A DNA stretch of 55,135 nt from a virus, in UHGV virus genome UHGV-0258472. The stretch is one strand, 5' to 3'. The position numbers and the translations under genes are program-made. Positions 37,541-52,108 of the stretch are shown here, in pieces (positions within the stretch are counted from its first letter, which is position 1; the number at the start of each line of letters is the position of its first letter). The notes below the pieces were generated by a model. It worked only from the letters and a program-made list of their open reading frames with translations, did not search any database and was not told the DNA's origin.

Positions 37541-37551
37541 ATTAACCTCCA

Positions 37552-37905
37552 TCATCTGACGACTTGCTCAAATGTTGCGTTTAGCGTGCATACCGGGCCG
37601 TCTTTCGTCATGCTCCACTTTCTACATACAAAAAGCCTTTGCACCCCGTCAGTGGATGGAGTCCAGTAAAACGCCTCGACCGCGCAACGTGCTCTTAAAA
37701 ATGCGTCAACCTGTAGCGCTACGTTTCCGTCGTCACCGCATCCGGCGCTCGTACCCTTAAAGACCAGCGTATAGCTATCAAGTAAAGGGTTAATCCCTTT
37801 TGTCTGCCTCTGTTCATACCCATCACCCAGTTTAATGACAGACACGTTAGGCTCACTGTTTACGCTGTAGCTTCTTTGTGGTGTCCATCGGAACACTTCA
37901 GGCAT
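37552..37905 (-). CDS. minor tail protein (lambda M-like)
   Basis: 117 aa; N-terminal EVFRWTP motif typical of phage minor tail protein M; ATG 37905. Confidence 0.65.
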   Translation of the reverse strand: MPEVFRWTPQRSYSVNSEPNVSVIKLGDGYEQRQTKGINPLLDSYTLVFKGTSAGCGDDGNVALQVDAFLRARCAVEAFYWTPSTDGVQRLFVCRKWSMTKDGPVCTLNATFEQVVR

Positions 37906-38072
37906 AAAACCCCCTATAAGTTACATTTTGTATATACCTTTACGCGATTCTACGCGAAAAATGAGATCTTCATCACAATGATTATAGCCAGTTTTCAAAA
38001 TGGCTTCACTTTGGAAATCACATATTGTATACAGAAAGCAAATAAGAAAGACGTTGCACAAAGGGGGATGTT

Positions 38073-38327
38073 ATGAAACTGGTAGCGATTGACAAAAACC
38101 TGAAAGCACAGAAAAACGCACAGGACCGGATCATCAAGAAAGGCAAGGAACTTCTTAAAGCATTTTTGAAGAAAGAAGCCCACCCCAAAAAGTTACGCGA
38201 CGGATACGGTTTTAAATTTGACATCAACCCAGATTGGCGGCTGTTCAGTGAAGACCTCAAGGTATGGTTAATCATCGATCATCTTGAATACAACAGGCAC
38301 TGCGGAGTCAAAGGGGCGCATAAGTGA
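38073..38327 (+). CDS. hypothetical basic protein (84 aa), moron cassette A
   Basis: ATG 38073 with SD agggggat. Confidence 0.45.
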   Translation: MKLVAIDKNLKAQKNAQDRIIKKGKELLKAFLKKEAHPKKLRDGYGFKFDINPDWRLFSEDLKVWLIIDHLEYNRHCGVKGAHK

Positions 38328-38335
38328 GGCGTGAT

Positions 38336-38428
38336 ATGGAAGACGATAAATTCACCTGGCGTGAGATCTGGAACATCTGGCAAGTGATGTTTGCTCGCAG
38401 CTACATAGCAAGAAACGGAAGATTGTAA
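38336..38428 (+). CDS. micro-ORF (30 aa), moron cassette A
   Basis: ATG 38336 with SD gtgagg. Confidence 0.3.
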   Translation: MEDDKFTWREIWNIWQVMFARSYIARNGRL

Positions 38429-38481
38429 TTTGCGGAGGAAAATAAAATGAAAACCCGGCAAATAAAAGCAATGTAAAACGT

Positions 38482-38616
38482 ATGGCCTGGATCGTAAAAT
38501 GGATGGATAGTAAAGGAGATACATATACTGAACCATTTTTCAAACATACTGACGCAGTATTTGCAAGAAGTGTAAGAGGCGGGAAAATTGAAAGAGGATA
38601 TACAAGTTTTGAGTAA
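38482..38616 (+). CDS. micro-ORF (44 aa), moron cassette A
   Basis: ATG 38482; no clear SD. Confidence 0.25.
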   Translation: MAWIVKWMDSKGDTYTEPFFKHTDAVFARSVRGGKIERGYTSFE

Positions 38617-38654
38617 ATTTATTTATGTGATTAATAGCACAGTGGAGATTGATA

Positions 38655-38834
38655 ATGATTATTAACGAAACGGAAGAATGCAGACGTATTACTCTTAGCA
38701 TTGAGTATGACGAAAGATTATGGCTTGAGTGCGACTGCGAATTGATCGTAATAGATAAAAAGCAAGCCGCAGAACTAATAAAGGCATTACAGCTTTATGT
38801 AAACGGCGAATTTAAAAATGATGAAATTGAATAA
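38655..38834 (+). CDS. hypothetical small acidic protein (59 aa), moron cassette A
   Basis: ATG 38655 with SD agtggaga (ORF-track first codon is TTG). Confidence 0.4.
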   Translation: MIINETEECRRITLSIEYDERLWLECDCELIVIDKKQAAELIKALQLYVNGEFKNDEIE

Positions 38835-38841
38835 AAGATAA

Positions 38842-38860
38842 CCCCGGCACAATGCCGGGG
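38842..38860. terminator. bidirectional rho-independent terminator between cassette A and tape measure gene
   Basis: ccccggcacaatgccgggg hairpin with T-runs on both strands. Confidence 0.55.
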
Positions 38861-38866
38861 TTATGT

Positions 38867-41206
38867 TTATTTGCGACGAGGTTGTAATATTCCGCCTGGT
38901 CTTTGTGATTCCCTTGTTATCATTTTCATTGCTACACGTTCCATTGTCTGCTCAAGTCTGCGGCTGTCATCGTCGCTAAATCCGTTTGTGGTCTGAATGT
39001 TGATATTGACAGGCATACTAATGCCGCCGCCACCGCCAATATCACGCCCAGGAATAATTCTGCCATTCTCGCCAGGGATCATATATTGATTTCCGTTAGA
39101 TGTCTGGAATAGCTCCGGCCTGTTGTGTTCCCCTACACGGTACATATTGCCACCAATGACGCTACCACCATTAAAGCGTCCTCCGCCAAAAATTGACGTC
39201 GCCAGCGACATGATCGCAGAAAGCGCCGCCGCACCAGCCGCCGCCCAGCTACCACCAGTTGACGCAGCCGTTGCCGCCGCTGCCGGGGCCGCCGCCGCAG
39301 CAATCTGGCCTTGTGCCGCTACCGCGCCAGCCGTGGTACTTGCCTGCGTTGCCTTGCTTTGTGTCTCCATCATGATTTGATCTGCTATCCAGTCAGCGGC
39401 TATATCTGAAAGTCTGCTACCAATATTGCCGAGGATATTGCTACCTAAGTTAGCAAAAACATCGCTCAATGATTGAGTACCGTTTAACAGACCAACAAGC
39501 GCATTGCTCATACCACCTTTAAGGCCATTAACGCAATCACCGATCAGGCCGTTAGTGTCGCTTTGCGCCTGCCATTGCTCCCACTTCAGATCGCGGATCT
39601 GCTGCTCATAGGCTAACAATTCCTGTTTCTGTTGCGCTTCGGTAGCCCCCAGGTCGATAAGCATTTGCTTACGAATTGCCCATTCATTCTGTACCTGCTG
39701 AATAGGGTCAACCTCGCCTTTTAGCTGGTCCATCGGGCTAACTATTTGCGACCATTTATCACGCAATTCATCTACAGGGATTTGCGCTAATTCTTCCTTC
39801 AGTTCCTTGCCTATCCCTTTTTGCGCGGCGCGGTACTCAAGGATGGTGATTTTACCCTGGGCGAATGCAGCATCAATGGCCTTGCCGTTCTCTAATGCTT
39901 TGCGCATGGCGGCGGCGTCTTTGTTGTACTGGTCAGAAACGCTTATGCCTTTGTCACCAAGCCGATCAGCTTCTGATTTCTTCTCTTTTTTCGGTTTTTT
40001 CGGCTTATCAACTGGCTGATCGAATCCGGTGATCTTGCCGTCGTTAGCCTCACCCTGTTTCTGCATGAACTCATCATAAGCGGCAGTCGCGTTTTTAATA
40101 TCGTTTGCAAACGTCATAACCTTGCCGACGGTAGGGCCGAATTTTTTCTCGTTGTTGCTGTTTAGCTCTTCCTTGCGTTTATCGACAATTTCCTTCATCC
40201 ATTTGTAGCCATCCATTAGCGCTTTTATTGGCGTTACCATTCTAATGATCTCTTCCGCCACCTCACCAGCCTTAACAGCCACGTCGTCAAACATGTCGAT
40301 GAATTCGCTACCAGCCGTTTTGAGTGTATCGAAGCATGTTTTAGCAAATTTAGCGCCCTCGCCAAGTCCTTTAACGCCCTTCGTGATTAAGTCGATAGCT
40401 GATACCACGCCGTCTGATACGCCGAAAAGATCGTCCAACTGCTCAACAAGGCCCATGATCTCTACTTTAAGCTCATTGATAGCCATACCGGATGTGCGCG
40501 GCAACTGAGCAAACTTATCGTTTGTTTCCTGCGTAGCCGCCTGGATCGCGTTGACCATCCTTTCAGCCGTGATCTTGCCGTCCAGCATTTCTGCGCGGAA
40601 CTGGCCCATTGATAATCCCATCTGGCGGGCCATTGTCTGTACGATGGTCGGGGTGTTCTCAAGAAGGCTGTTGAATTCTTCAGCACGGAGTACGCCGCCG
40701 TCGATAGCCTGGCGGAACTGGCGCATTGAGTTAGACATCTGTTCCGCTGATGCACCACCTAACGCTCCCATTTTCTGAATAGTGCCAACAAGGTTAAGTA
40801 ACTGGCCTTCAGTAGCGGATGTGTTCTTTAATGAGATGGCAAGTCCTTGCCATAATTCGCCAGTATCTTTCAGGCTCTGGCCTGTTTCTTTCGATATTGC
40901 TTTCAGGCCGTCGAAAACCCGTCCGGCGGACTCCGCATCGCCAGTAAGCATTTTGATTTTTACGCGTAGCATTTTTGCTTGTTCCGCCATATCCATAAAT
41001 TGGCGCACTGCTTCCGCAGCAAGTAGCAGATGGATGACCCTGGTCAGTGCTTTGATGGATGTTTTCAGGGTGTTTACCTGGCGGTCAGCCTGTTTTGCGC
41101 CGCGCTCTATACGGTCAAAGGCCTGGTCTGCCTGTCGTTGTGCAACGAGAAGTTGACCAGTTTTTGCATCAACCTCGTAATAAATTGTACCTACACTGGT
41201 AGCCAT
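38867..41206 (-). CDS. tail tape measure protein
   Basis: 779 aa, Ala/Gly/Gln-rich with long helical segments; position upstream of M/L/K/I/J; ATG 41206 with SD gaggt. Confidence 0.8.
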   Translation of the reverse strand: MATSVGTIYYEVDAKTGQLLVAQRQADQAFDRIERGAKQADRQVNTLKTSIKALTRVIHLLLAAEAVRQFMDMAEQAKMLRVKIKMLTGDAESAGRVFDGLKAISKETGQSLKDTGELWQGLAISLKNTSATEGQLLNLVGTIQKMGALGGASAEQMSNSMRQFRQAIDGGVLRAEEFNSLLENTPTIVQTMARQMGLSMGQFRAEMLDGKITAERMVNAIQAATQETNDKFAQLPRTSGMAINELKVEIMGLVEQLDDLFGVSDGVVSAIDLITKGVKGLGEGAKFAKTCFDTLKTAGSEFIDMFDDVAVKAGEVAEEIIRMVTPIKALMDGYKWMKEIVDKRKEELNSNNEKKFGPTVGKVMTFANDIKNATAAYDEFMQKQGEANDGKITGFDQPVDKPKKPKKEKKSEADRLGDKGISVSDQYNKDAAAMRKALENGKAIDAAFAQGKITILEYRAAQKGIGKELKEELAQIPVDELRDKWSQIVSPMDQLKGEVDPIQQVQNEWAIRKQMLIDLGATEAQQKQELLAYEQQIRDLKWEQWQAQSDTNGLIGDCVNGLKGGMSNALVGLLNGTQSLSDVFANLGSNILGNIGSRLSDIAADWIADQIMMETQSKATQASTTAGAVAAQGQIAAAAAPAAAATAASTGGSWAAAGAAALSAIMSLATSIFGGGRFNGGSVIGGNMYRVGEHNRPELFQTSNGNQYMIPGENGRIIPGRDIGGGGGISMPVNINIQTTNGFSDDDSRRLEQTMERVAMKMITRESQRPGGILQPRRK

Positions 41207-41455
41207 AATTTAACCTCATACAAAATGTGATCTATGTCTCTATTTTATACAAAATGGCTTCATTTCAACGAATACATTTTGTATAAAGAAGGTGAAGGAT
41301 GAGAGAGATAAAAGAAGGTCGAAGGATATAAAGGATTAAGACTTGAAGCACAGCTAACCGATGGAACGAGGGAGGCGAAAACCCCTAAAACTAAGGAAAC
41401 AGCAAAGGGATTTAAAAGGCCGGATTAACCGGAGGAAGCAAAAGAGGATAAGAAA

Positions 41456-41545
41456 ATGAAAAACGTAAACTACCGCCCCAACGAACATGAACGCTATGCG
41501 GACTTCATCGAAGAAATGTTAAAAGCACTTAAAAACAAAAATTAA
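41456..41545 (+). CDS. micro-ORF (29 aa), moron cassette C
   Basis: ATG 41456 with SD agaggata. Confidence 0.35.
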   Translation: MKNVNYRPNEHERYADFIEEMLKALKNKN

Positions 41546-41556
41546 GCGAGGCGCAC

Positions 41557-41664
41557 ATGGATACCATCAAAAGCATCATAGAAGTGTATATATCAGCATG
41601 GGTGGCTTTTAATGTAATGGCTGTATTCGTGCTGGCATTAACAATAAAAGGCGAATGTAAATAA
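41557..41664 (+). CDS. small hydrophobic peptide (35 aa), moron cassette C
   Basis: ATG 41557 with SD gaggcg; single TM-like segment. Confidence 0.35.
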   Translation: MDTIKSIIEVYISAWVAFNVMAVFVLALTIKGECK

Positions 41665-41675
41665 GGCGGTGCATC

Positions 41676-41978
41676 ATGGAACTAGTAATTCTCTTTATTG
41701 GATTTGTGGTAACTATGGTTGTAGCCGAGAAAAAACATCTTAATATGTTCCTTGCATTTATTGGCGCTCTGATTTGTTGGCCTGCTGTATTGATTTACGC
41801 CCTATGCGTCAACAAGAAGATGTTTAAACACTACATAGATGCTTTAACTTTCGTCAACATGGAGTTTTCTGACGCAACTGACGTACAGAAAGCACAGATC
41901 GCGACTTATCTTTACGATAACGTGTACACAGTCCATGATTTAGAAGAGGCAAGATGGCGCTTTGCAGCATACAAATAA
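41676..41978 (+). CDS. small membrane protein (100 aa, two TM segments), moron cassette C
   Basis: ATG 41676 with SD aaggcggtg; hydrophobic N-terminal half. Confidence 0.5.
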   Translation: MELVILFIGFVVTMVVAEKKHLNMFLAFIGALICWPAVLIYALCVNKKMFKHYIDALTFVNMEFSDATDVQKAQIATYLYDNVYTVHDLEEARWRFAAYK

Positions 41979-41986
41979 AAATAAAG

Positions 41987-42004
41987 GCCCGGTTAATTCC
42001 GGGC
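41987..42004 (+). terminator. rho-independent terminator after cassette C
   Basis: gcccggttaattccgggc hairpin followed by tttttcttg. Confidence 0.55.
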
Positions 42005-42685
42005 TTTTTCTTGCTTGCGATTTTTCATTCTTTCCAGTGCCTTTTTAGCGGCCTCCATTTGCTCATCATAAGCACGTTTATTTATGTGAACATTTGGCTT
42101 GCTTCTCTCGTTTCTTTCGTCTGGCGGCGTTTTAGCGCGCACAGCGGCCCTGTATCCGGTCATTGTCATATTCCACGCTTCTGATTCAGATAATCCCAGG
42201 TGAGCTACGGCAGAATAAACGAATTCAAGGACGTCAAATGTCGGCTTATATTCACCTTCCCGGATCTCCCCAGCGTATTCTTCCGGTCCATCACCGATTA
42301 AACCGTGGTACATGCAATGCTGCGCAAGCGTGATGACGTCATCAGTAGGCATCAATCCGGGTTTTAGTCGTAACTTGCCAGAAGGAGTAAACCAGCATTC
42401 GCCAAGCAATGGCCCTGTTTCCTCTTCTGAGCAACATTTCAGGATGCGCATAGATGTTTGCACTATCTCACCATAACACCGCGCCAGAATGCGATTGCGT
42501 AGGTCTGGATCTGCTGGCAATCGTGATGGATATTTGCCACCGTGGATGGTTGCGAAGTATTCTACCAGTTCTCTGTCACTGCCGATCTTAGCCATTGCAG
42601 CGAAGCAGGGATTAAACACATACCGCCTGCCATCGACTACAGCCGCAAATTGTCCAGTTCGAACATGAATCATAGCTTTCACCAT
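41993..42685 (-). CDS. putative tail assembly chaperone (by position between major tail and tape measure genes)
   Basis: Position only; start may be ATG 42673. Confidence 0.35.
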   Translation of the reverse strand: MVKAMIHVRTGQFAAVVDGRRYVFNPCFAAMAKIGSDRELVEYFATIHGGKYPSRLPADPDLRNRILARCYGEIVQTSMRILKCCSEEETGPLLGECWFTPSGKLRLKPGLMPTDDVITLAQHCMYHGLIGDGPEEYAGEIREGEYKPTFDVLEFVYSAVAHLGLSESEAWNMTMTGYRAAVRAKTPPDERNERSKPNVHINKRAYDEQMEAAKKALERMKNRKQEKARN

Positions 42686-42693
42686 AAAAGAAA

Positions 42694-42708
42694 GGGGCCA
42701 ACGGCCCC
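42694..42708 (-). terminator. hairpin terminator after major tail protein gene
   Basis: ggggccgttggcccc followed by tttctttt on minus strand. Confidence 0.45.
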
Positions 42709-42726
42709 GATTATTAATATTGATTA

Positions 42727-43203
42727 TTATGCTGCTGGGATGTCGCCAACCGTCACCTTACCAGCGCTTGAGCACTCAATAGACCAGGTGGAGACATCAT
42801 CGTTCGGATCTTCCTCTTTGAAGGAGGTGCAAAGGAATGGACCTTCAGTTACATCAACCGGGGAAACAAGTTTAAGCCACACATAAGGCTGAGATCCGGT
42901 TGTTTCACCAGGGTTAATAACGTGACGCTTCAGTTCTTTCTGATTATGGATTGCTTCAGTACGGGATACACCGTCACCTGAGAAAGAAATAGATTTGTAA
43001 GTGACAAGTGATTCTTTGGTGTAGTCTGCTGATTTATCAGCGGTGGCGTCTGCGGTTTCCCATTCGACGGAAAGCGTTTTGCCGCGCATCATGCCTAACG
43101 CTTTATAGGTTTCATCTGACGGTTTCGCGTTAGGACAAGCGATAGCGTAGAATACAGCCACGTCGCGGCCCAAAAACGCGCCCTTTTCGCAAGTCTGAGA
43201 CAT
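42727..43203 (-). CDS. major tail (tube) protein
   Basis: 158 aa; strong SD aagaggt; followed by terminator; position upstream of chaperone/TMP. Confidence 0.55.
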   Translation of the reverse strand: MSQTCEKGAFLGRDVAVFYAIACPNAKPSDETYKALGMMRGKTLSVEWETADATADKSADYTKESLVTYKSISFSGDGVSRTEAIHNQKELKRHVINPGETTGSQPYVWLKLVSPVDVTEGPFLCTSFKEEDPNDDVSTWSIECSSAGKVTVGDIPAA

Positions 43204-43215
43204 GTTTATTACCTC

Positions 43216-43602
43216 TTATCTAGATATGATGGTTTGAAAAGCTACGGTGAAAATAAAGCGCCCTTCTCTTGTCTGCATCGCAGGAATAGCGCCTACTGGC
43301 TTCATGTGTGTAATTTTATCAGTTTTATATTCTGTTAACATACTTTGACGGATGGCGTCGGCAAGGTCTTCCACTTCACTGATATTTGCGTCATTCCGCG
43401 CCGAAATAACCAGGATGCGGAAACAATCACGGGTTATTGCTTCCTCACCAGCCGCGCCGCCGTTTTGCTGGATAACAATGTATCGGTCGTTATTCGAATT
43501 GGATTTTTCATTCCAGAAGCGGGCCTGCAAAATATAGCCTTTATCGTACCCGTGGGATTTAATCCAATCCCTTATTTCGTCGTATACTTCGCTGCGTTTC
43601 AT
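43216..43602 (-). CDS. putative tail terminator / tail completion protein
   Basis: Position and size; ATG 43602 with SD. Confidence 0.4.
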   Translation of the reverse strand: MKRSEVYDEIRDWIKSHGYDKGYILQARFWNEKSNSNNDRYIVIQQNGGAAGEEAITRDCFRILVISARNDANISEVEDLADAIRQSMLTEYKTDKITHMKPVGAIPAMQTREGRFIFTVAFQTIISR

Positions 43603-44039
43603 GTTTTGTAACCTTCTACAATCTCTTTATAAATATCGTCAGCGTTGTTTGGATCTTCGAATGCCTTGCGCAAAAATTCCGGCTCCGCGTTTGGGTCCCA
43701 ATATTTACCTTTTCCAGTACCGCCGCCGAATTCAACCCCTTCGCTAGTCTTGCCGAAATGTTCGCGCGGCTGTCCTTTTAATTTACCTGGCATATTGTGC
43801 ACCCATTCAGCATACCTGGCCGTATATCCCAGCCGTAACTGCATACCCTCCGCCGTGCTACCTATATACTGAAATTGGCTGTTAATTAAAAAACCCGTAT
43901 CAACGGGGGTCATGTTCGCCGCGAAGCCACCAGCCAGCATCCCTACTCGCCATAACACCTCATGAGTTTTCTTATCTGTGATTTCCTTTAGCTCCTGCTT
44001 TAATCGCTCCCTGACACGTTTAACACCCTTGATAGGCAT
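43599..44039 (-). CDS. HK97 gp10-like head-tail joining protein
   Basis: Size, position and a VDTGxL-type motif; ATG 44039 with SD aggggg. Confidence 0.5.
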   Translation of the reverse strand: MPIKGVKRVRERLKQELKEITDKKTHEVLWRVGMLAGGFAANMTPVDTGFLINSQFQYIGSTAEGMQLRLGYTARYAEWVHNMPGKLKGQPREHFGKTSEGVEFGGGTGKGKYWDPNAEPEFLRKAFEDPNNADDIYKEIVEGYKT

Positions 44040-44041
44040 AA

Positions 44042-44416
44042 TTAACCCCCTGTCACGATCTTATAATCCGGCGTGTCATTAAACATGCTCATGTCCCATT
44101 CAACGATCCCGGTTATAAAGTTGGCCCCAGCCGCCAGCGGGTCAGCAATAGCAGTTGTGTCTCCAGTGGCAAGCATCCACCCTTTTCCCGGGCGCTGCAC
44201 TGGCTGCATCTTGTGAAGCAGTTCGGTAAATACGGTTATTGTATTGCTAACCTCATTGCCGTTTGTGTCTGTTGCCGTGCCGTCGGTGCGCTCCCATGAG
44301 CAATCAATCAGGTATGGTGCACCGTATACATCGGAGTTTGTCCAGTCGTCACGCGTTACGGGGTAAATGGTGGCTAATGCCTTGTAGCTGAATCGCGCGA
44401 TCTTACTCATAGCCAT
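44042..44416 (-). CDS. putative head closure / head-tail adaptor protein
   Basis: Position; ORF-track start is TTG, ATG at 44416 or 44410. Confidence 0.4.
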   Translation of the reverse strand: MAMSKIARFSYKALATIYPVTRDDWTNSDVYGAPYLIDCSWERTDGTATDTNGNEVSNTITVFTELLHKMQPVQRPGKGWMLATGDTTAIADPLAAGANFITGIVEWDMSMFNDTPDYKIVTGG

Positions 44417-44588
44417 AGCTCCATTTAACAATTTTCGGATGGGTTTTCGCCACGCGCGGGCAAAGAATTACCCATTCGCCAGCATCATTGAGATAGGCGG
44501 CGACCTGTCGCCCTGTGTCAGTCTTCACCCATACGCGGGTAAACGGCTTCGGCATTAGTGGTTTTGGTAGCGTTAGATCATTCCACAT
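44403..44588 (-). CDS. hypothetical small protein (61 aa)
   Basis: ATG 44588 with SD gggagg. Confidence 0.4.
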   Translation of the reverse strand: MWNDLTLPKPLMPKPFTRVWVKTDTGRQVAAYLNDAGEWVILCPRVAKTHPKIVKWSYGYE

Positions 44589-44590
44589 GG

Positions 44591-44977
44591 TTACATCCTC
44601 CCACTCTTACCAATCCATAGTCCGGCGTGCGCGGTGGCTTCTGGATCTGCTGGAATCAGTTCTGCTGTGCAATTATGCTTGTCAATCGAGCGTAGCAACG
44701 AGCAAGCCGCCCTCCATTTTTTATTAAAATCAACATAGCGGTAGGACTGGCTTGCACCGTTCGGACCTGTGTGTGAGGAAACGTATTTATTCGCCTGTGT
44801 GAGTCCTAACAGCCCGATCAGATAAAGCTGAATTAATGTTGCAGTGGATGCCGGATAGTTAGCATCAAGGCATTCATTAACGCTATTTGCCTGCTCCACC
44901 AGCAAAGATAAGATAACGTCTGGCAGGTCAATACCCTGGCTTTCAAGATATTCCCGCGCCTGTTCTGTAGTGACCAT
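44591..44977 (-). CDS. putative head-tail connector protein
   Basis: Start set at ATG 44977 (SD ggag) downstream of capsid-gene terminator. Confidence 0.45.
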   Translation of the reverse strand: MVTTEQAREYLESQGIDLPDVILSLLVEQANSVNECLDANYPASTATLIQLYLIGLLGLTQANKYVSSHTGPNGASQSYRYVDFNKKWRAACSLLRSIDKHNCTAELIPADPEATAHAGLWIGKSGRM

Positions 44978-45003
44978 TTTGTTTACTCCACATACAAAAA
45001 AAA

Positions 45004-45024
45004 TCCCCGGCATTGCGCCGGGGA
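45004..45024 (-). terminator. rho-independent terminator downstream of major capsid gene
   Basis: tccccggcgcaatgccgggga hairpin followed by an 8-9 T run on minus strand. Confidence 0.6.
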
Positions 45025-45043
45025 GTTACAGGAAACAAGGAAA

Positions 45044-46096
45044 TTATTTGTGACCGTAAACGACACCGGAACGGCCCAGCATGTCGCAGGTGATTTGTAA
45101 ACCTTCGGCAGACATGATTTTGAAGTTGTAGTTATCAGTCGGCATAAAGCGCGGCAGAGGCACTACGCCAGTAGTCATACCAACCAGCGGGGTGATGACG
45201 TTGCGGCGGCGTTGGTAAGCAATGAACTCGTTACCTTTCAGCGCAAAGGTCTGACGGATTTCTTTAACCGGAATGAACGGTTTAACGATATTCAGTACAG
45301 TACCAACAACAGTACCGTTAGCAATGTGCGGCGCTGCCAGGTTAGCCATAATTTCAGGGGACACCCACATGAGATCATACTGGTCAACGCGGTTGTTACG
45401 GGCCATGACACCGAATGCACCAGTGGTGAAGAATTTGATGATGTCATCGAATCCGTCAGTGGTGAGGTCTTCGGAGGTCATGACTAGTTGCTGGGTATTG
45501 CGGTGATTTTTAATACCCTGACCAGGTTTACCGTTGACATTGATTTTTGCGTTACCGTTAAGGTAATAATCAACGCGTGCCTTGTTGAATTTTTGCAGTT
45601 TCAGGCGCTGGCTATCCAGTGCAAGGTCAATACCAACAGTTTTCAGACCTTCGGAATGACGCCAGTTGACACCGTAACCCGCTGCGAACATCGGGATCGG
45701 GTCGCCATCGCTGCCATATTCAGTGTGATCAAAGCCATGCGGGGCTTGACCATCAATACTAACGACGACTTCATCGTTAATATCACCGGATACGCTGTAC
45801 ATTTTCTCCGTTTTACCGATTGGTAATACTGTTTGCACAGCCATCAGGTCGTTTACAATTTCAATACCAGTCTCTTCGGTGCTCATTTCGATAATCTGAT
45901 TATCGATAGCTTTCCAAAATTCCTGATCGAAGCCGCCAACGGCATTACATGCCAGGATGTCAGCGGTCATGTTTGCCATATTTGCGGCAATAAGAGCGCC
46001 GTCACGATCATTGAACATGTTGCGCTGCGCCCACAGGTGATCCCACTGAGCACGAATGCGGCTGTTGGTAGCAAGGTTGTGTTTATTAAACAACAT
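45044..46096 (-). CDS. major capsid protein
   Basis: 350 aa; strongest SD of the head cluster (agaggtg); followed by strong terminator; position after scaffold/decoration genes. Confidence 0.65.
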   Translation of the reverse strand: MLFNKHNLATNSRIRAQWDHLWAQRNMFNDRDGALIAANMANMTADILACNAVGGFDQEFWKAIDNQIIEMSTEETGIEIVNDLMAVQTVLPIGKTEKMYSVSGDINDEVVVSIDGQAPHGFDHTEYGSDGDPIPMFAAGYGVNWRHSEGLKTVGIDLALDSQRLKLQKFNKARVDYYLNGNAKINVNGKPGQGIKNHRNTQQLVMTSEDLTTDGFDDIIKFFTTGAFGVMARNNRVDQYDLMWVSPEIMANLAAPHIANGTVVGTVLNIVKPFIPVKEIRQTFALKGNEFIAYQRRRNVITPLVGMTTGVVPLPRFMPTDNYNFKIMSAEGLQITCDMLGRSGVVYGHK

Positions 46097-46115
46097 AGTT
46101 TTTCACCTCTTATTA

Positions 46116-46517
46116 TTATGCAACGCGGACACGTACAAAATCAGCCGCTTCAAGGGTTACAGCTTCCTGGCAGAAAGCGAAAACTGTTTCATCAGATGCT
46201 ACCAATTTAAATCCACCTTCACCGATGGTGATGGCAGCGTCTTTGGTGTAAGCACCCTCAGGAAGCAGGATTGCGAATTCGCGGGCTTCTTCTGCGTAGT
46301 CAGCGACCACGGAATGACCAGCCGGAATTGCATCCTCAATACCCAAGCCTTCATGGTATGCCGGATTAACAACATAAATACGGCCTTCGGTATCGGTGGC
46401 GGCAACGAATTTACCAGCCGTCATTTTAACCGGGGTGCCTGGTTTAAGCTCTGCGGCAGATACTGCGGTTTCGGTAATAGATTTACCGTCAATATTCACA
46501 CGACGAAAACGGGCCAT
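46116..46517 (-). CDS. head decoration / capsid-associated protein
   Basis: 133 aa immediately upstream of major capsid; strong SD agaggtg. Confidence 0.45.
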   Translation of the reverse strand: MARFRRVNIDGKSITETAVSAAELKPGTPVKMTAGKFVAATDTEGRIYVVNPAYHEGLGIEDAIPAGHSVVADYAEEAREFAILLPEGAYTKDAAITIGEGGFKLVASDETVFAFCQEAVTLEAADFVRVRVA

Positions 46518-46527
46518 AATTCACCTC

Positions 46528-47823
46528 TTATGCGAAATAGTTGTTAATGTCAGGGGTAGCAGGTTTATTTCCACCAGCGGCGGAGTTTGCCGCCATTGGT
46601 GCTGCTTTACCCAGGGATTTAAACATTGCTTCTAATGCTTCACCGCTTAAAGCGTTAGCAACAATTTCGCCGTGAACTTTTGCTACTGCGGCGCGTTTTT
46701 CTGCTTCTTCTTTATTTGCGTTTGCTGCGATCTCTTCTTTGATCGCTTTCTGATTGGTCTGTAATTCTTCAACGCTTGCCCGCACTGGTTTTAATGCCTC
46801 TGCTACTGCATTAGCGATATTAGCGGCTAAGCCTTCGTTAATTTCTTTTACCAGTTCGGCGCGTTCTTCTTTGGTCAAAGGCATGGGATCGTCCTCCGAT
46901 TTATTGGCCTTAATTTTTTCATTCAGGGAGAAAAGATTAGAAAGGTGTTCAGCGAACTGCGTAAACCAGGATTTACTTTCCTCGTTGGTTGCAAGCTCGC
47001 CATTATTGAGAATAATTTTATCAGCCTGTTTTTCATATGCGCAAACTTGAGCACTTTCAGTATTAGTGGCGATCGTCACTTCTTTATCAGTGAAGTCCAC
47101 CACATACACATAATCGGCATCAGGGAATAATTCCCGCGCGGCGTCGGTTAATTGTTTCTCAAGTGTGCGGTAGCTGTTTTCTTTCATTGCCACCGTCATT
47201 AACGGTTTCGCCTGGTCAGTATTAACCATCAGGCCAACGCCTTGCTCTGGTGAAGCGGCTGGCGGCTCATGCAGCAAAATAGCGTCATGGTCGATAGACA
47301 TGATTTTCACCACATGGTCGGCACCCTGGGCTTTCATCTCTTCAGTAGCTGGCATACGTTGACGATATACAGCGACGGATGACCAGATCGGATCTTTGCT
47401 TTCTCCTTTCTCCAGTGCTTCAAGTCTGCTTAATAATTCGCGGCCTTGCTCTGAATGGCTGGCGGTTTCAACATCCACCCATTTTTCCACATAAACACGA
47501 TTGCCGCGTAATTCAACGTTTCTGTTCCACGCTCCACAAAAACCCGTGTTTAATCCTTCCGGGCTAAATGCGGAAACAAATTTACCGTCCACGGTAGGAT
47601 GACCCAGCGGGGCAAGCGTACCCTCCAGTGACTGGTAATTAGCGATAATTTCAGCTTCCGGGTAATATTCCCGATTCATTACGATGTTAAATGGTAGTGT
47701 ATATGACGGGACAACGATATGCTCGCGACCGTTGTATGTTTCACGGCGTATGGTATTAGCGGTTAATTTAGTATTAACCTGAATCAATTCTTTACTCACG
47801 GTTTTACTCCCAATCTTCGCCAT
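46528..47823 (-). CDS. putative scaffold / prohead maturation protein
   Basis: ~430 aa with long C-terminal helical charged region; between Mu F-like and capsid genes; start set at ATG 47823 (ORF-track TTG 47838). Confidence 0.45.
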   Translation of the reverse strand: MAKIGSKTVSKELIQVNTKLTANTIRRETYNGREHIVVPSYTLPFNIVMNREYYPEAEIIANYQSLEGTLAPLGHPTVDGKFVSAFSPEGLNTGFCGAWNRNVELRGNRVYVEKWVDVETASHSEQGRELLSRLEALEKGESKDPIWSSVAVYRQRMPATEEMKAQGADHVVKIMSIDHDAILLHEPPAASPEQGVGLMVNTDQAKPLMTVAMKENSYRTLEKQLTDAARELFPDADYVYVVDFTDKEVTIATNTESAQVCAYEKQADKIILNNGELATNEESKSWFTQFAEHLSNLFSLNEKIKANKSEDDPMPLTKEERAELVKEINEGLAANIANAVAEALKPVRASVEELQTNQKAIKEEIAANANKEEAEKRAAVAKVHGEIVANALSGEALEAMFKSLGKAAPMAANSAAGGNKPATPDINNYFA

Positions 47824-48748
47824 ATTTAGCGTGCGCAACCTTATAGTTTTCTTGCGCCCGATCTAATATTCGTTTGTTTAATATGTTACCGTCTTCGTCA
47901 ACCAATACGGTAATCGTGCTACATTTGCAGTTAATTGAATTTGGGGATCTGCTCCACCATTCGCGCTGCTCATCTATGGTGTATGTTTTCCCGTGCCGCT
48001 GCGCGTGCGATAGCCTGGTAGTCGGTGACAATGCCGAAATGTGCATTTGCATAGTGCGCAGATTAAGCTCTTCTGTCGCCGCTTCTGCCTCATCCATACG
48101 TGCTGTGCGTAACGCTGTGCATATTTCAGTTCTGGCAATACGTTTGCACCTGTATAGCGGCAATTGCGTTTCCTGCTGCAATGTGCGCGCTATTTCCAGT
48201 GGATTTAAACCACGGGCCATACCTTCGGTTAATCGCCGGGCCATATCCTTCTTGATCTGTGCTGTTAGCCCGCGCATTTCCTCAAATACACGGGTACGAA
48301 CAAGGGCAAGACGCGTGCGGTAAGTCGTACTTGATAGCACGGCGGATACATCAGGATAAGCGCTTGAGTAAGTAACAGACTGGTTGGCGAGGTTGGCATA
48401 TTCCTGTGAAGTGCCGCGCTGATATGCCACCTTCACGTATTCCTGCCAAAACCAAAAACTTTCCGGGTCGGTTAGCTCGAATATTTCATCAATCATGTCG
48501 CTGGCGTCTTCCAGCAAATCATGCAATTCGTCAATGTAGATCTGGAAAGTGTATTTCTTATTAACAGCCAGGCTATATTGTATTCTGTCCAGTATGGCGA
48601 TATATGGATCGGCTATTTTCTTCAGGCAGGATTTGAAACGCTTAATAGCTCCCGACCGTAACTTACCTGTCATGGTCGGGTCTTCGGTGTTAGATGGCAT
48701 TATCGCGGCGGGAGGTATTCGCCTGATTATTTTCTTCACCTTCATCAT
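47804..48748 (-). CDS. Mu F-like minor head (head morphogenesis) protein
   Basis: Size and position immediately after portal gene; resemblance to Mu F / SPP1 gp7 family from memory. Confidence 0.65.
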   Translation of the reverse strand: MMKVKKIIRRIPPAAIMPSNTEDPTMTGKLRSGAIKRFKSCLKKIADPYIAILDRIQYSLAVNKKYTFQIYIDELHDLLEDASDMIDEIFELTDPESFWFWQEYVKVAYQRGTSQEYANLANQSVTYSSAYPDVSAVLSSTTYRTRLALVRTRVFEEMRGLTAQIKKDMARRLTEGMARGLNPLEIARTLQQETQLPLYRCKRIARTEICTALRTARMDEAEAATEELNLRTMQMHISALSPTTRLSHAQRHGKTYTIDEQREWWSRSPNSINCKCSTITVLVDEDGNILNKRILDRAQENYKVAHAKYGEDWE

Positions 48749-50063
48749 CGTTTTCCTCGTCTTCCAGTTCTATTTCACTAGCTGGGCCATCGTATCCGGC
48801 AGCTTCGCGGATCTCGTCACCGCTAAATATTTCCTCACCAGTAGCAAGACAAGCCTGATTGATTTGCGCCATTTTGTGTGCCGCTTCCAGTAGCTCGGCT
48901 TTTGTCATGGCGTTAAGGTCATCCCATAAAACTGATACATCGACTGGCATACTGATAAGGCGGAGATCTGCCATCTTGCGGAATAGTTCCTCAAGCTCGC
49001 CTCCTATTTCCTCGCGGCGGGTCATACAGCGATTATTGAAGTAGCGGAGGTCTTCAGTTGATGCGCGTTCACCCTGCTGATTCCCAACCAGGATACGCGT
49101 CGGGATGTCGATACCAGCGGCGGCAGTTTGCAGGTTTACGTCATAGGTTGCAGATGGATCGGCTACGGCAGTTACCAGCGGGCTAACACTTGCCCCTTGT
49201 AATGCCATCATCACATCATTACCCCTGTTCATTTCTGCTGCTGCCTCGTTGAATTTCTCGCGTAGCTCTGTAACGTCGCAATCGTATGTTGCAGCCAGGG
49301 AACGGAAATCAATCTCTTTATCGAACGAGATAGCCAGTTGACGAGCGGCATTTTTCAGGAATGACTCACCGCTACCGCCTTCCACTTTCTCCAGCGAAAC
49401 GAAAGCGTTATAGGACGGCTCAAGGAAAGCGATAGCATCATCAGAATAATCACCGAAGATGAATATACGGTCTGGATGAATCTTTCTTGCTATGGTCTTA
49501 CTGTTGATGCGCTCCTTGTATTCCCACCATGTAGGCAGGCCATAGTTTTCTTTATCCGGGTTTTCTTCGAAGTCCTTCGGCGTAAGAGCACCAGCCCACG
49601 CAGGGGTAAATTTGGCAATGCCTACGCCTTTTGTCACTGGCTGATCCCACGGCTGGTTATCTCTGACATGAATTAACAGACCAGCATAACGACCAATGAG
49701 GCGGCGGCGATCGCATTCAGCTATGACGCGCCAGAAACGATTATCAAATTGCTTTTTAATTTCTCTTTCCCACGGCGTTTCCGTTTCTGCTTTCTCGTCT
49801 TCCGTACCTTCGATCAGCGTTGGCCTGGTGCGCCAGCACGTTGTAATGATCTTCTCAATAGCACCGTGAGCAATACCACCGCGACGATACAGCTTGTATA
49901 AATCGTCATAGGTGATTTCTTCTTTGAATCCGTATTCACTCCACGCAGCATCACGTTTTGCATCAATACCCATTGAGAATGGGTTAACGGCTGCATAGCG
50001 GGCGAAGGCCGCCTGGCGTTGTGACAAGGCAGCATTAACCGCCAATTCTAAATTGGATGGCAT
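48690..50063 (-). CDS. portal protein
   Basis: ~457 aa, acidic C-terminus, immediately downstream of terminase large subunit; start set at ATG 50063 (SD aggag). Confidence 0.65.
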   Translation of the reverse strand: MPSNLELAVNAALSQRQAAFARYAAVNPFSMGIDAKRDAAWSEYGFKEEITYDDLYKLYRRGGIAHGAIEKIITTCWRTRPTLIEGTEDEKAETETPWEREIKKQFDNRFWRVIAECDRRRLIGRYAGLLIHVRDNQPWDQPVTKGVGIAKFTPAWAGALTPKDFEENPDKENYGLPTWWEYKERINSKTIARKIHPDRIFIFGDYSDDAIAFLEPSYNAFVSLEKVEGGSGESFLKNAARQLAISFDKEIDFRSLAATYDCDVTELREKFNEAAAEMNRGNDVMMALQGASVSPLVTAVADPSATYDVNLQTAAAGIDIPTRILVGNQQGERASTEDLRYFNNRCMTRREEIGGELEELFRKMADLRLISMPVDVSVLWDDLNAMTKAELLEAAHKMAQINQACLATGEEIFSGDEIREAAGYDGPASEIELEDEENDDEGEENNQANTSRRDNAI

Positions 50064-50141
50064 AATGTTTACTCCTGAATACATGTTTACGCGTTGCTAC
50101 GCGAAAAATAGAAAAATTCGTGAGGGATTGTGAGGCAGATT

Positions 50142-51620
50142 TTAAAATCCGCGCAGGCGCTTAGGTAACATGAGGCCCATTGCCTGTGGCTGGCTTAATT
50201 CAGTGATACCCCATACCATTGCGTCGAGGCGGTCAGGGGATTTTTTAGCGGTAGCTGGCACGTATTCCATCATTTGATTTTCCAGCGTGTACAGGCTGCC
50301 TGTGTGGGCCACCCTTCCTTGTGCATACAGTGCCGATATTGGCTCGGCGCGGGCGAATTTACCTTTGCTTGCGTGCACCTTAACAATGCGGCCTTTGAAT
50401 CCGGCATTACGTAGCGTGGCCTCCGCCATTTCGCCGCCCTGGTTGGTTTCTATAACTATCGCGTCAGCTTCATGGATGTTGTAAGCGTTCATTGATGCTT
50501 GCGCCCAGTCGTTAGGAGACATGCGGCCTGAGTAGTCACCGTCTACAGAATACTGTGCGTACTTGCCGCCACCATAAGCGGAACATGCCACGATCCCGGT
50601 TTCGTCCGACTCATCAGATGATGTTGTTGCCGGGTCGATGGCTATCACCGTGCGGATCCTGTCCTGCGTTATCTGCATCCGGTGCGCGGCGGTTATCATC
50701 GCTTCATTCCACAACGCGCCCTCTTCGTCGAATCTGCGCGGGCGCTGCATGTACTGGGCCTCAAATGACCTTCTGTGTGCCTTCAGTCCGGCTTCATGGC
50801 TGTCATTGTGCTTTTTAGGCCATAGCCAGCCGTCTGGCAGGTTGTGAGCAATAGGAATAGCGAATTCGTTTTCCGGGTACAGATCCCAATAGTCGATGCT
50901 GTTGTCGATCTTCACTGGCAGGTTAAGGTGATACCACTTCTCACCGCTGCCGCCGCGTAACAGGTAGCCGGACAAATCATCGTAGTGGATGCGCTGCATA
51001 ATGACGATAACAGGCGTCTCCTGTACGGCAAGACGTGAAGCGAGCGTGTCGTTGTAGTTGTTCTTTACCTTATCCCGCATCACATCAGAGTAAGCGTCAG
51101 CGGGCTTTAATGGGTCGTCGATAATTAACGCGCCGTTGAAGCCTGGCTCCATGTAACCAGCACGAAAACCCGTGATCTGACCGTGTGACGATGCGGCATA
51201 TATCCCGCCGCCCTGTTCCGTCCACCACATTGATTTGGAGTTGGCATCATTGCGGATCTTCATAGGCCACATTGCTTGATACTCTGGCGAGCAAATCATA
51301 TTTCTGACTGTCGACGAATTGAGTAATGCGAGGTTGTCGGAATAGGAGACGTGAAGAAAACGCGTGCGGGGATTTATTGCGAGGGACCGCGCCATCATAT
51401 TGATAGTTGCGATCATGGTCTTGCCGTACCCTGGGGGAATGTTAATGATGAGGCGGGTAATCTCACCATTGATAACGCGTTGCAGTGCATCGCGGATAGC
51501 TATGTGATGGCCTGAGACAAACATCTTCGTACCGTTTGCTTGCTTGTAGAAATAGCGGTTGAAGAACAGGCCATCGTTTTCACATTTGGATTGTATAATC
51601 CTTTCTTTAAGCGACAACAT
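50142..51620 (-). CDS. terminase large subunit
   Basis: Walker A PPGYGKT, ATPase and C-terminal nuclease-like region; ATG 51620 with SD gaggtg (ORF-track first codon is GTG). Confidence 0.85.
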   Translation of the reverse strand: MLSLKERIIQSKCENDGLFFNRYFYKQANGTKMFVSGHHIAIRDALQRVINGEITRLIINIPPGYGKTMIATINMMARSLAINPRTRFLHVSYSDNLALLNSSTVRNMICSPEYQAMWPMKIRNDANSKSMWWTEQGGGIYAASSHGQITGFRAGYMEPGFNGALIIDDPLKPADAYSDVMRDKVKNNYNDTLASRLAVQETPVIVIMQRIHYDDLSGYLLRGGSGEKWYHLNLPVKIDNSIDYWDLYPENEFAIPIAHNLPDGWLWPKKHNDSHEAGLKAHRRSFEAQYMQRPRRFDEEGALWNEAMITAAHRMQITQDRIRTVIAIDPATTSSDESDETGIVACSAYGGGKYAQYSVDGDYSGRMSPNDWAQASMNAYNIHEADAIVIETNQGGEMAEATLRNAGFKGRIVKVHASKGKFARAEPISALYAQGRVAHTGSLYTLENQMMEYVPATAKKSPDRLDAMVWGITELSQPQAMGLMLPKRLRGF

Positions 51621-51622
51621 AA

Positions 51623-52108
51623 TCACACCTCGTCTTCTACTTCCTGGACGATGCGGGCGATCTCTTCTTTCGTGACTTCAACCTGGACGGGCGCTTCTTC
51701 CTTGTTGCCGACGATCTCCTGTGTGACGCGTTCGCCGTATTTGCGCGGCTGAAGTTTTGCCAGTAGCCACTTGCGCGTTTCAATCATTAGTTGGTGGCGT
51801 CGCAACTGATCTTTATCTTCGTTCTCTGCTGCATCAGCCAGATCGATGATTTCATCAGCCAATACCTCGAAGCCGATCTCCTTCGCGCGCGCGTACATGA
51901 TCGAGAATTCCGGTACATCCCTAAACCATTTCAGGATTGTGGAACGGGTAGGCATACCAGGCATTTTCGAAATTTTATTAATACTCTGACCATCCGCCAC
52001 CAGTTCACAGATTTCTAATGCTTTTTCTTCGGTATAACCATGCGGACGGCCCACCTTTTTAGCGGCTGGCTTTTTATCGTCAGCCTTTGCCTTTTTAGTG
52101 CGGGCCAT
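51623..52108 (-). CDS. terminase small subunit
   Basis: 161 aa basic N-terminal HTH-like region, immediately upstream of terminase large subunit; ATG 52108 with SD gagaggtg. Confidence 0.7.
   Translation of the reverse strand: MARTKKAKADDKKPAAKKVGRPHGYTEEKALEICELVADGQSINKISKMPGMPTRSTILKWFRDVPEFSIMYARAKEIGFEVLADEIIDLADAAENEDKDQLRRHQLMIETRKWLLAKLQPRKYGERVTQEIVGNKEEAPVQVEVTKEEIARIVQEVEDEV

Follow-up and report, generated by a model that had tools for sequence, protein, structure and literature searches.

The window, as we call the whole 55,135-nt stretch of DNA analysed, is the complete, circularly permuted genome of a phage of the mEpimmI (mEp021-like) coliphage family, a group described as a family only in 2025 and as common as lambdoid phages in human faecal isolates. 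Two of its late-gene junctions carry near-identical copies of a 24-nt element. At the first, copy 1 (TTTACGCGATTCTACGCGAAAAAT in plus-strand letters, 37939-37962) precedes the M-like minor tail gene (37552..37905, minus strand; PF05939, E 4e-29), whose ATG at 37905 follows 33 nt after it on the late strand, behind a minus-strand Shine-Dalgarno sequence, AGGGGG, at 37910-37915. At the second, copy 2 (TTTACGCGTTGCTACGCGAAAAAT in plus-strand letters, 50086-50109) lies in the ~78-nt non-coding gap between the stop codon (50142-50144) of the large terminase gene (50142..51626, minus strand) and the start of the portal gene (48690..50063, minus strand; PF06381). The portal ATG at 50063, which is also the RefSeq/PGAP start, follows 22 nt after copy 2 on the late strand, and the portal Shine-Dalgarno AGGAG (50072-50076, minus strand) is 9 nt from the element, which a further in-frame ATG at 50084, upstream of the portal start, abuts.

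Read on the minus strand, copy 1 is ATTTTT-CGCG-TAGAAT-CGCG-TAAA, with stem arms at 37953-37956 and 37943-37946, and copy 2 is ATTTTT-CGCG-TAGCAA-CGCG-TAAA, with stem arms at 50100-50103 and 50090-50093, giving the RNA consensus AUUUUU-CGCG-UAGNNN-CGCG-UAAA, in which a 4-5 bp GC hairpin comes after a U-tract. The preliminary description had placed both 24-mers at exactly these coordinates and had called the pair too similar for chance, which holds, in that the copies are identical at 22 of 24 positions and none of 100 dinucleotide shuffles gave a match. Both copies are co-oriented upstream of late-gene starts, as had been proposed, and the CGCGTA direct repeat noted then is present as CGCGTA-N4-CGCGTA, its period being 10 rather than 11 bp. 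The self-complementarity of CGCG lets the bases of this direct repeat double as an inverted repeat, TTTNCGCG-N6-CGCGNAAA. Likeness between the junctions reaches slightly past the 24-mer (82% identity between 37929-37962 and 50076-50109), with a weak in-register match ~20-40 nt upstream of both copies on the late strand, the score of which was equalled in 47 of 2000 shuffles. No third copy of the core pattern occurs in the 55,135-nt window at ≤3 mismatches.

Comparison with relatives revealed the element at the same two junctions, between terL and portal and between the cassette and the M-like gene, in mEp021, mEp044, IMG/VR relatives and gut-metagenome contigs, such that conservation in relatives, which had been named earlier as a check, is seen at both junctions across the mEpimmI family. 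It is absent from more distant phages and from 185,579 species-representative genomes, and the 2025 paper on the family does not mention it. When measured on loci retrieved by protein or flank, never by element sequence, nucleotide diversity of the element was 0.047 for the M copy and 0.012 for the portal copy, against 0.17 (M) and 0.26 (portal) in upstream non-coding DNA and 0.31 (M) and 0.22 (portal) at third codon positions. Of 31 M loci, 24 keep both CGCGTA hexamers at 10-bp spacing; among 48 IMG/VR portal loci, only L150 is altered outside the variable loop, and the element is intact in all 23 related metagenome portal loci (23/23). Overall, 20 of the 24 positions are almost invariant while the 4-bp centre varies freely, and spacer types are sometimes swapped (CTTC at portal in L004 and L025, TTGC at M in L061), so the same sequence is acceptable at the M and portal sites. 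Judged from these alignments, the element is clearly under selection in the mEpimmI family.

RNAalifold independently returned a late-strand hairpin in which 97.9% of cells pair, and prediction within a context of 120 nt gave a stem-formation probability of 0.8-0.9. Stability of the hairpin is low (-6 to -7.6 kcal/mol; z-scores -1.6 to -2.2), the plus strand and shuffled flanks allow the predicted stem just as readily, and the window's M leader, when folded over 96 nt, prefers a competing structure. Five of the 8 stem pairs are invariant and 3 show one-side changes, all to standard pairs; none changes on both sides, and with zero compensatory double changes covariation tests are uninformative (as is the shuffle control). 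Just two stem substitutions occur, both C to U; they yield wobble pairs (U·G and G·U) in the late-strand hairpin, whereas a plus-strand hairpin would carry A·C mismatches, and we estimate the probability of two wobble-preserving substitutions by chance at roughly 0.1. At the innermost position of the hairpin, 25 of 30 variants have U·G or U-A. Rare natural variants touching the direct repeat keep the hairpin in every case while breaking the 10-bp direct repeat; two contigs have a loop of 5 nt, not 6, with a direct-repeat period of 9 bp, and in two contigs the first hexamer is CGCGTG. The loops read UAGAAG, UAGCAA and similar, and the flanks are conserved, as are the loop UAG and a U·U mismatch, though both of these are unpaired.

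We tentatively favour, at a probability of about 0.4, the reading of the element as a cis-acting leader RNA hairpin that would serve processing, stability or translational control. Among the four functions first offered for it (internal late promoter, RNA processing, antitermination and protein binding), RNA processing or a leader-RNA element appears to fit best. This reading draws on the co-orientation of both copies in untranslated gaps at 22 and 33 nt from start codons, on the leader distance that the element keeps in contig L086 (see below), on the low diversity relative to non-coding flanks and third codon positions, on the RNAalifold hairpin and its predicted stem probability, on the hairpin's tolerance of all variants that touch the direct repeat, and on the precise absence of the block from the tape-measure and L leaders (see below). 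It is weakened by the missing compensatory changes and the ~0.1 chance estimate, by a weak stem that folds equally on the plus strand and loses to the competing M-leader fold, by an invariance of loop UAG, U·U and flanks that exceeds structural need and that a DNA site fits equally, and by tape-measure and L genes that manage without the hairpin. Mechanistically, the element would sit in the late-mRNA 5' leaders of two translational units, one of portal and head genes and the other of the M-like gene and a 66-aa gene. The AU-rich single strand beside the hairpin may provide an RNase E-type endonuclease entry site and/or a factor-binding site, the hairpin could then cap the RNA downstream, and the downstream genes would thereby be uncoupled from upstream RNA, presumably terminase mRNA at the portal site and untranslated antisense-cassette RNA at the M site. 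As the loop UAG and the U·U mismatch are conserved, the hairpin suggests a protein or RNA reader rather than the fold alone, perhaps in the manner of a translational operator.

The same unpaired but invariant bases would suit a DNA operator, which is the main rival explanation, possible but on balance unlikely. Here a sequence-specific phage or host protein would bind double-stranded DNA, whether two subunits occupy the tandem 10-bp repeats or a dimer the inverted repeat, and would modulate late transcription across both junctions, for example at an activator site or as an orientation-dependent roadblock silencing the portal and tail-tip genes in lysogens. A freely varying 4-bp centre among 20 near-invariant positions is typical of a half-site spacer, the repeat period equals one helical turn, spacers swap between copies, and direct-repeat sites of the Q21 Q-binding element (QBE) and stoperators, as oriented intergenic repressor sites, are precedents. 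Against it, a cognate protein is not evident, with no CII family member among the early proteins scanned and no DNA-binding domain among the cassette and late small proteins scanned, and the immunity and early promoters carry neither a copy nor a half-site; the TACGCG between the repressor and cro-like genes is a single hexamer inside the repressor coding sequence. In addition, natural variants alter a hexamer base in each repeat, two contigs shift the phase from 10 to 9 bp, and the portal copy has no promoter to regulate. A NagC/Mlc operator, for which TT and AA are needed at positions ±5,6 from the symmetry centre (PMC4288165), was rejected, as the element has G and C there.

Around the M-like gene lie further modules. 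TATAAT at 37981..37986 (minus strand), 18 nt upstream of copy 1 and invariant in 31 of 31 M loci, is a candidate -10 element for transcribing M as a separate unit; at the portal copy the corresponding hexamer is only CACAAT. One copy of a genome-wide palindrome, TATACA-WWW-TGTA, occupies 37920..37934 between copy 1 and the M Shine-Dalgarno, and TAT-N-CA recurs at equal offset after both copies. The antisense cassette has a promoter-like module (37996..38036, plus strand) that points away from the M gene and recurs ahead of the tape-measure gene at 41250-41290. The paralogous leader of that gene (41207..41262, minus strand) has the same ...AGATCACATTTT / GTAT...SD...ATG frame without the hairpin block, and the tape-measure and L leaders align with the M and portal leaders minus exactly this block of ~19-26 nt. 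A late-strand -10-like hexamer plus AGATCWCA (8 matches vs 2.3 expected) is found in the tape-measure, M, L and fibre units, and since each of these ends in a terminator, the tail genes look like separate units. Many related tails also have a gene-insertion hot spot at the M junction.

Such modules bear on the proposal, made in the preliminary description, that the element belongs to internal late promoters. Under this proposal, transcription would restart before portal and M, with the element as initially transcribed region or as an activator site overlapping the -35 region, and the invariant TATAAT, the terminator-ended tail units with their -10-like hexamer and AGATCWCA, and the shared TAT-N-CA offset are consistent with it. 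We nonetheless consider it improbable, as a consensus scan of both strands found no promoter hexamers at or beside either copy, the portal copy has CACAAT without a -35, and an element acting as -35 would place the start within or beyond the portal Shine-Dalgarno, 9 nt away. Moreover, the restart modules of the tape-measure, L and fibre genes work without the element. A consensus sigma-70 promoter (hexamers at 16-18 bp spacing, with the ribosome-binding site falling inside the transcript) was rejected as a class, with no site found and no -35 to the M-copy TATAAT.

Antitermination, also suggested at the outset, fares worse and seems very improbable to us. The element would be a reload site whose boxB-like hairpin recruits the N-like Gp17 or another factor to RNA polymerase within the long late transcript. 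The family does depend on Nus factors and has both Gp17 and a PF03589-type Q, and this phage's boxB hairpins likewise have 4-5 bp GC stems and 6-7 nt purine-rich loops starting with U. Yet neither copy has a boxA (GCTCTTTAAAAA or TTCTTTAACAA) nearby, boxA-like matches in the window lying at 8555, 16007 and 17244 and none near 37962 or 50109. The loops of the phage's three nut sites, which have been mapped in the family to three early positions only, contain GNRA tetraloops (GGAA, GAAA, GCGA), unlike the AGNN of the element. An intrinsic terminator was rejected on orientation, since on the late strand the T-run precedes the hairpin and on the plus strand the run after it is of A, and the element was not among the terminators listed by a terminator scan. 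Rfam 15 covariance models gave no gathering-score match in the whole window and nothing relevant at E≤10 around the copies.

Could the element instead be a passenger without regulatory role, kept in recombination-prone junctions as a small mobile or duplicated hairpin or as a homing endonuclease's recognition site? Compared with the paralogous leaders it behaves like a discrete insertion, genes tend to insert at the M junction in related tails, and in one IMG/VR contig (L086) a homing HNH gene landed adjoining it, between element and M. The ATG of this HNH gene lies 35 nt after the element, which thus stays at leader distance from whichever gene is first. We think a passenger highly implausible, as diversity 4 to 20 times below that of adjacent non-coding DNA is not expected of neutral passenger DNA, the element is kept in M loci both with and without the HNH gene, and there are two copies only per genome and none outside the family.

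Late-gene control in mEpimmI phages has so far been known only through a Q homologue, and at two key virion-gene junctions no other non-coding sequence is as strongly conserved as the element. Together with the surrounding promoter and terminator modules, it suggests that one lambda-like late operon is too simple a picture of the structural genes. The coordination of head and tail expression raised in the preliminary description is speculative. It is conceivable, though we would hold it with some doubt, that the copies form a two-site regulon of a putative sequence-specific late regulator in the family. If so, the regulator would be an RNA-binding translational repressor or activator reading the UAG loop and U·U mismatch or, alternatively, an orientation-specific DNA roadblock protein; the output of portal (head initiation) and M-like protein (tail-tip completion) would be set jointly, and the hairpin block would be a portable control module copied from leader to leader. 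For the field this is a useful finding more than a surprising one, and the two 24-nt sites offer a precise and cheap handle on how portal and tail-tip protein levels are set.

Among known systems, autogenous translational operators, such as the T4 gene 43 and gene 32 leaders and the MS2 coat-protein hairpin, are small GC hairpins with conserved unpaired bases, placed tens of nt before a start codon and read by protein. Each of these lies on a single mRNA, overlapping or next to the ribosome-binding site, and has a known protein partner, whereas the element is shared by two genes and lies 9-20 nt from the Shine-Dalgarno. Like boxB of mEp021-type and lambda nut sites, it has a short GC stem and purine-rich loop in transcribed non-coding RNA; unlike boxB, it lacks boxA and a GNRA-type loop and accompanies late genes rather than standing just after early promoters. 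Stoperators resemble it as oriented sites in short intra-operon intergenic gaps whose orientation correlates with transcription direction, and the element too has one orientation, which chance alone gives in 1/2 of cases with two copies. They differ in being 13-bp, asymmetric, present in >20 copies and shared in sequence with the immunity repressor's early-promoter operator; the element has only two copies and none in the immunity region, and a stoperator-type site was rejected as its sequence is missing from the early promoter/operator there. The direct repeat recalls the two short subsites of the Q21 QBE, which is found shortly after gene Q within the late promoter, where a sigma-dependent pause element and a terminator adjoin it (bioRxiv 10.1101/651190). 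A Q-binding element was rejected, neither copy having such a setting and none lying near Q (6403-7125; PF03589, a family other than that of Q21's Q) or the terminator before the holin gene (55031-55049). The extended start-associated sequences (ESAS) of Cluster K mycobacteriophages are likewise short family-specific repeats that share one orientation, closely precede the translation starts of a gene subset and are conserved across subgroups (PMC3203893). ESAS have imperfect 17-bp arms associated with a 13-bp SAS containing the ribosome-binding site, and 11-19 copies in the non-structural half of the genome (PMC3203893), as against arms of 8 bp and two copies at structural genes here. The element has no SAS beside it and no sequence homology to ESAS; the likeness is one of kind only and lies in the inverted repeat, variable spacer, single orientation, start-proximal position and group-wide conservation that the element displays.

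The preliminary description had placed near-identical 24-mers upstream of two late genes, and its coordinates proved correct, with TTTACGCGATTCTACGCGAAAAAT at 37939-37962 (the M copy) and TTTACGCGTTGCTACGCGAAAAAT at 50086-50109 (the portal copy) on the + strand. The two share 22/24 positions, a likeness that had been judged beyond chance and indeed was, with 0 matches in 100 dinucleotide shuffles. A degenerate 24-mer pattern (≤3 mismatches) matched these two places only, and a shorter core pattern with 3 mismatches again revealed no third copy across the window. Each copy also contains the direct repeat described earlier, CGCGTA-N4-CGCGTA on the late (minus) strand or TACGCG-N4-TACGCG on the + strand, with a period of 10 bp, and because CGCG is its own complement the repeat's own bases form a TTTNCGCG-N6-CGCGNAAA inverted repeat. 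The late-strand sequence of the portal copy is TAA-AATCTGCCTCACAATCCCTCACGAATTTTTCT-ATTTTTCGCGTAGCAACGCGTAAA-CATGTATTC-AGGAG-TAAACATT-ATG, and this copy lies in the non-coding gap downstream of the large-terminase stop, 9 nt from the Shine-Dalgarno sequence. The M copy, TATAAT-CATTGTGATGAAGATCTC-ATTTTTCGCGTAGAATCGCGTAAA-GGTATATACAAAATGTAACTTAT-AGGGGG-TTTT-ATG on the same strand, sits in a divergent control region and not in a simple operon, since + strand cassettes with their own promoter-like modules interrupt the tail genes.

The phage belongs to the mEpimmI group of temperate coliphages (mEp021, mEp010, mEp013, mEp044, mEp515, mEp554 and MagusPhagus), to which it is 84-91% identical around both element sites and which a 2025 paper, without mention of the element, established as a new family (PMC11893012). 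An ORF spans the window ends, and the sequence is therefore a complete, circularly permuted genome. The late genes, all on the - strand, comprise Q (PF03589; 6403-7125), the endolysin and spanin genes (near 53855-54885), the small (51623-52108) and large (50142-51626) terminase genes, the portal gene (PF06381; 48690-50063), the tape-measure gene (38867-41206) and the M-like minor tail gene (PF05939; 37552-37905), while the + strand cassettes between tail genes occupy 36345-37355, 37906-38866 and 41207-41992, each with a promoter-like module and a bidirectional terminator at its end. A prophage of E. coli UMNK88 matches the window exactly over 101 nt around the portal copy, a stretch found in 35/5,426 complete E. 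coli genomes. The portal protein (PF06381, Phage_portal_3), whose gene has its UMNK88 counterpart at NC_017641.1 1647681-1649054, is labelled by RefSeq/PGAP, throughout the listed E. coli genomes, as 'anti-CBASS protein Acb1 family protein', a name that looks misleading because the gene sits between terminase and head genes.

Several further features of the genome were observed along the way. In mEp021 (~23920-23950, equivalent to window 50063-50084), ATA replaces the portal ATG of the window and most relatives, so the mEp021 portal must start at the annotated upstream ATG abutting the element or at a TTG two codons on; that abutting ATG is GTG in another relative (L065). Upstream of the small terminase gene (52110-53030, - strand) runs a series of very short ORFs, each with a ribosome-binding site, encoding hydrophobic peptides of 20-30 aa with related starts (MNAYDLIW..., MNIYDLIW..., MNAYEMLL...), where mEp021 has an unannotated gap of ~485 bp. 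Two GTGACAC-rich 45-bp tandem repeats within the O-like replication gene (17924-18013) may be origin iterons, and three ~190-bp copies at 19016-19575 within a zinc-ribbon/T5orf172 gene match its repeated treble-clef domains.

Lack of conservation among related phages had been named in advance as grounds for refutation, and the element is instead kept at both junctions across the mEpimmI family. Scanning IMG/VR with the exact pattern returned 95 stretches, and all except ~9 chance matches were the same two junctions, on contigs of ~54 kb that mostly held two each. Because such a search is conditioned on the element, loci were re-fetched without it as query. It was present in 50/50 loci fetched via the portal protein (one with a single T-run change) and in 23/23 related gut-metagenome loci fetched via the portal ribosome-binding site, a 24th match there being unrelated and due to chance. 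Of 31 loci fetched via the M protein (82-99% identity), both CGCGTA hexamers and their 10-bp spacing are retained in 24, the other 7 showing small changes. Nucleotide diversity within the element was 0.047 (M copy) and 0.012 (portal copy), against 0.174 and 0.257 in the 60 nt upstream and 0.31 and 0.22 at third codon positions of the downstream gene. Near-invariance at the portal junction spans the U-tract through the ATG, and at the M junction only the element and the upstream TATAAT stand out as conserved. Such low diversity contradicts the idea that the element is a functionless passenger of mobile or homing-related origin, which we regard as very improbable.

The terminase and portal genes are also found in Cronobacter phage ES2 and Klebsiella phage RAH1, whose junctions of 388 nt and 15 nt lack the element, M homologues at 63-69% identity have quite different junctions, and an exact-pattern scan of 185,579 species (one genome each) gave 7 matches in unrelated bacteria, approximately the estimated chance expectation. 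To judge from these comparisons of sequence, the element is confined to the mEpimmI family. It is a real, strongly constrained, family-specific cis element, with two copies per genome.

The evidence leans towards a hairpin in the leader of late mRNA. RNAalifold on 30 distinct versions of the element returned AUUUUU-CGCG(U)-loop-(R)CGCG-UAAA, with three flanking U-A pairs across a U·U mismatch and standard pairs in 97.9% of all cells; no pair changed on both sides among the 30, which leaves formal covariation controls nothing to measure. At the innermost position, 15 versions have U·G, 10 have U-A and 5 have U·U. Two substitutions were seen in the stem, both C to U (relatives L162/L167; L166), which pair as U·G and G·U in the late-strand reading and would be A·C mismatches in the + strand one; two wobble-preserving substitutions would occur by chance about 1 time in 10 by our estimate. 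One loop base is lost in L163 and L164, so that the hexamer period is 9 bp rather than 10 bp, and the first hexamer is CGCGTG in L177 and L182. Every variant in which the direct repeat or a DNA half-site is damaged keeps the late-strand hairpin, and a single-stranded, late-strand reading is favored for that reason, if on small numbers. These same variants bear on whether the two copies are a duplex DNA operator for some protein, a reading that fits near-invariant half-sites flanking a freely varying 4-bp centre; yet the phase-shifting deletion and the hexamer changes occur naturally and the portal copy has no promoter, and we consider the operator a doubtful, if serious, alternative.

Several observations disfavor a purely structural role. 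The UAG of the loop, the U·U mismatch and the flanks vary as little as the stem does; the hairpin is a weak one, at -6 to -7.6 kcal/mol (z -1.6 to -2.2); its predicted formation is the same on either strand; and natural flanks favored it no more than shuffled flanks did. Conservation of the unpaired bases suggests a specific reader, in the style of a translational operator. Domain searches for a cognate factor among the small cassette, late and early proteins found nothing, and Rfam gave no relevant match, whether at gathering score or with permissive settings.

Internal late promoters and antitermination sites had both been offered as functions, and neither was supported. Consensus scans listed no sigma-70-type promoter at or beside either copy, and with the invariant TATAAT before the M copy as the sole point in its favor, we think it improbable that the element forms part of internal promoters. 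The nutR1, nutR2 and nutL sites of the phage itself were located and consist of a boxA (GCTCTTTAAAAA or TTCTTTAACAA) with a boxB hairpin after it whose loop is GGAA, GAAA or GCGA; no boxA accompanies the element, and the loops of the element (UAGAAG, UAGCAA and similar) are of a different type, so that a nut-like site is rejected and an antitermination reload site strikes us as most improbable. No intrinsic terminator was found by scanning at or beside either copy, the T-run lying on the wrong side of the late-strand hairpin and an A-run following the hairpin on the + strand. Immunity and early promoters carry no copy or half-site, and the element is therefore not a stoperator-like site of the main repressor. 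A NagC/Mlc operator was considered as well, but its defining TT/AA positions do not match (criterion from PMC4288165). A CII-type activator site for + strand antisense promoters fails on the lack of a conserved + strand -10 at suitable distance, of a + strand gene after the portal copy and of any CII family member among the early proteins scanned. Both copies share a + strand frame, F-T-R-x-Y-A-K-N, whose most variable base is a synonymous third position; coding fails to explain the variation pattern because the remaining third positions never vary, and a ribosome-binding site is absent. An upstream ORF after the element was likewise set aside, with ATG-TAT following most copies but ATA or GGT standing in place of the ATG in many M copies, including that of the window, as was Shine-Dalgarno sequestration, the pairing in the portal fold not being kept among variants.

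Comparison of late leaders points to a modular hairpin. The regions upstream of the tape-measure, M, L and 853-aa fibre genes are paralogous, each comprising a cassette promoter module on the + strand, a -10-like hexamer on the late strand (TATAAA or TAAAAT, TATAAT, TATGAT), AGATCWCA (8 found vs 2.3 expected) and a short leader, and the M vs tape-measure alignment scores 61 where shuffles score 25 ± 5. Tape-measure and L leaders align as ...AGATCACATTTT | GTATGAGG...ATG, and those of M and portal carry an extra block, CGCGTAGNNNCGCGTAAAN, at the bar; being present in one pair and absent from the other, the hairpin acts like a self-contained block that two of several related leaders possess. 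Farther upstream, portal and M leaders match weakly in register (ATTTTAAAATCTGCCTCACAATC vs ATTTTGAAAACTGGCT-ATAATC; 47/2000 shuffles score as high). In an IMG/VR contig (L086), a late-strand gene for a 157-aa HNH homing endonuclease (4035-4508) is inserted between the element and the M-like gene, whose start it overlaps by 29 nt, and the element is kept 35 nt upstream of the HNH start codon. Because the insertion kept the element before its own start, the element belongs to the start of a unit and not to M specifically. HNH or T5orf172 genes were seen at other junctions in other family members.

By sequence, the 29100-42010 region divides into four tail units (tape-measure; M plus a 66-aa gene; L-K-I-J; the 853-aa fibre gene), ended by bidirectional terminators at 29528-29556, 37331-37349, 38838-38864 and 41983-42008, and its tail genes would not form one operon. 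Among the + strand cassette genes are those for a ParE-like protein (38073-38327) and a KilAC/ANT-like protein (37005-37253). A palindrome, TATACA-WWW-TGTAT(A), matched 22 times in the window at ≤2 mismatches (4.1 expected), with sites at 8584, 12205, 15622, 16302, 19935, 29169, 36412, 37920, 38018 and 41271; all divergent promoter modules in the tail region contain it, it also lies beside the N-like gene promoter and nutR2, and it looks like an operator or promoter core common to many units.

From the observed position, orientation, conservation, folding potential and variant pattern of the element, we infer any processing, stabilisation or translational control that it exerts, and its reader. 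Our preferred reading, to which we give a probability of roughly 40%, is a cis-acting leader RNA element, a U-rich single strand beside a small GC hairpin, that lies 22-35 nt ahead of a unit's first start codon and would mark a point for processing or binding. Genes after it might thereby be uncoupled from the RNA before it, namely the terminase mRNA at the portal site and ~960 nt of untranslated antisense-cassette RNA at the M site. What probability remains after the alternatives discussed here is assigned to explanations outside them.

As far as likeness of sequence goes, the element is in no described family. Small translational-operator hairpins of phage mRNAs are close to it in kind. Among described elements, the nearest in kind are the extended start-associated sequences found in Cluster K mycobacteriophages (PMC3203893), variable-spacer inverted repeats that closely precede the starts of some genes and have a single orientation. 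L5-type stoperators have orientation and intergenic placement in common with the element but are defined by a sequence link to the immunity operator, which it does not have, and the Q21 binding element (bioRxiv 10.1101/651190) has the direct-repeat form in common, whereas its setting of promoter, pause and terminator is not that of the element. We see here a fresh example of a familiar type of phage regulatory signal, with a putative reader.
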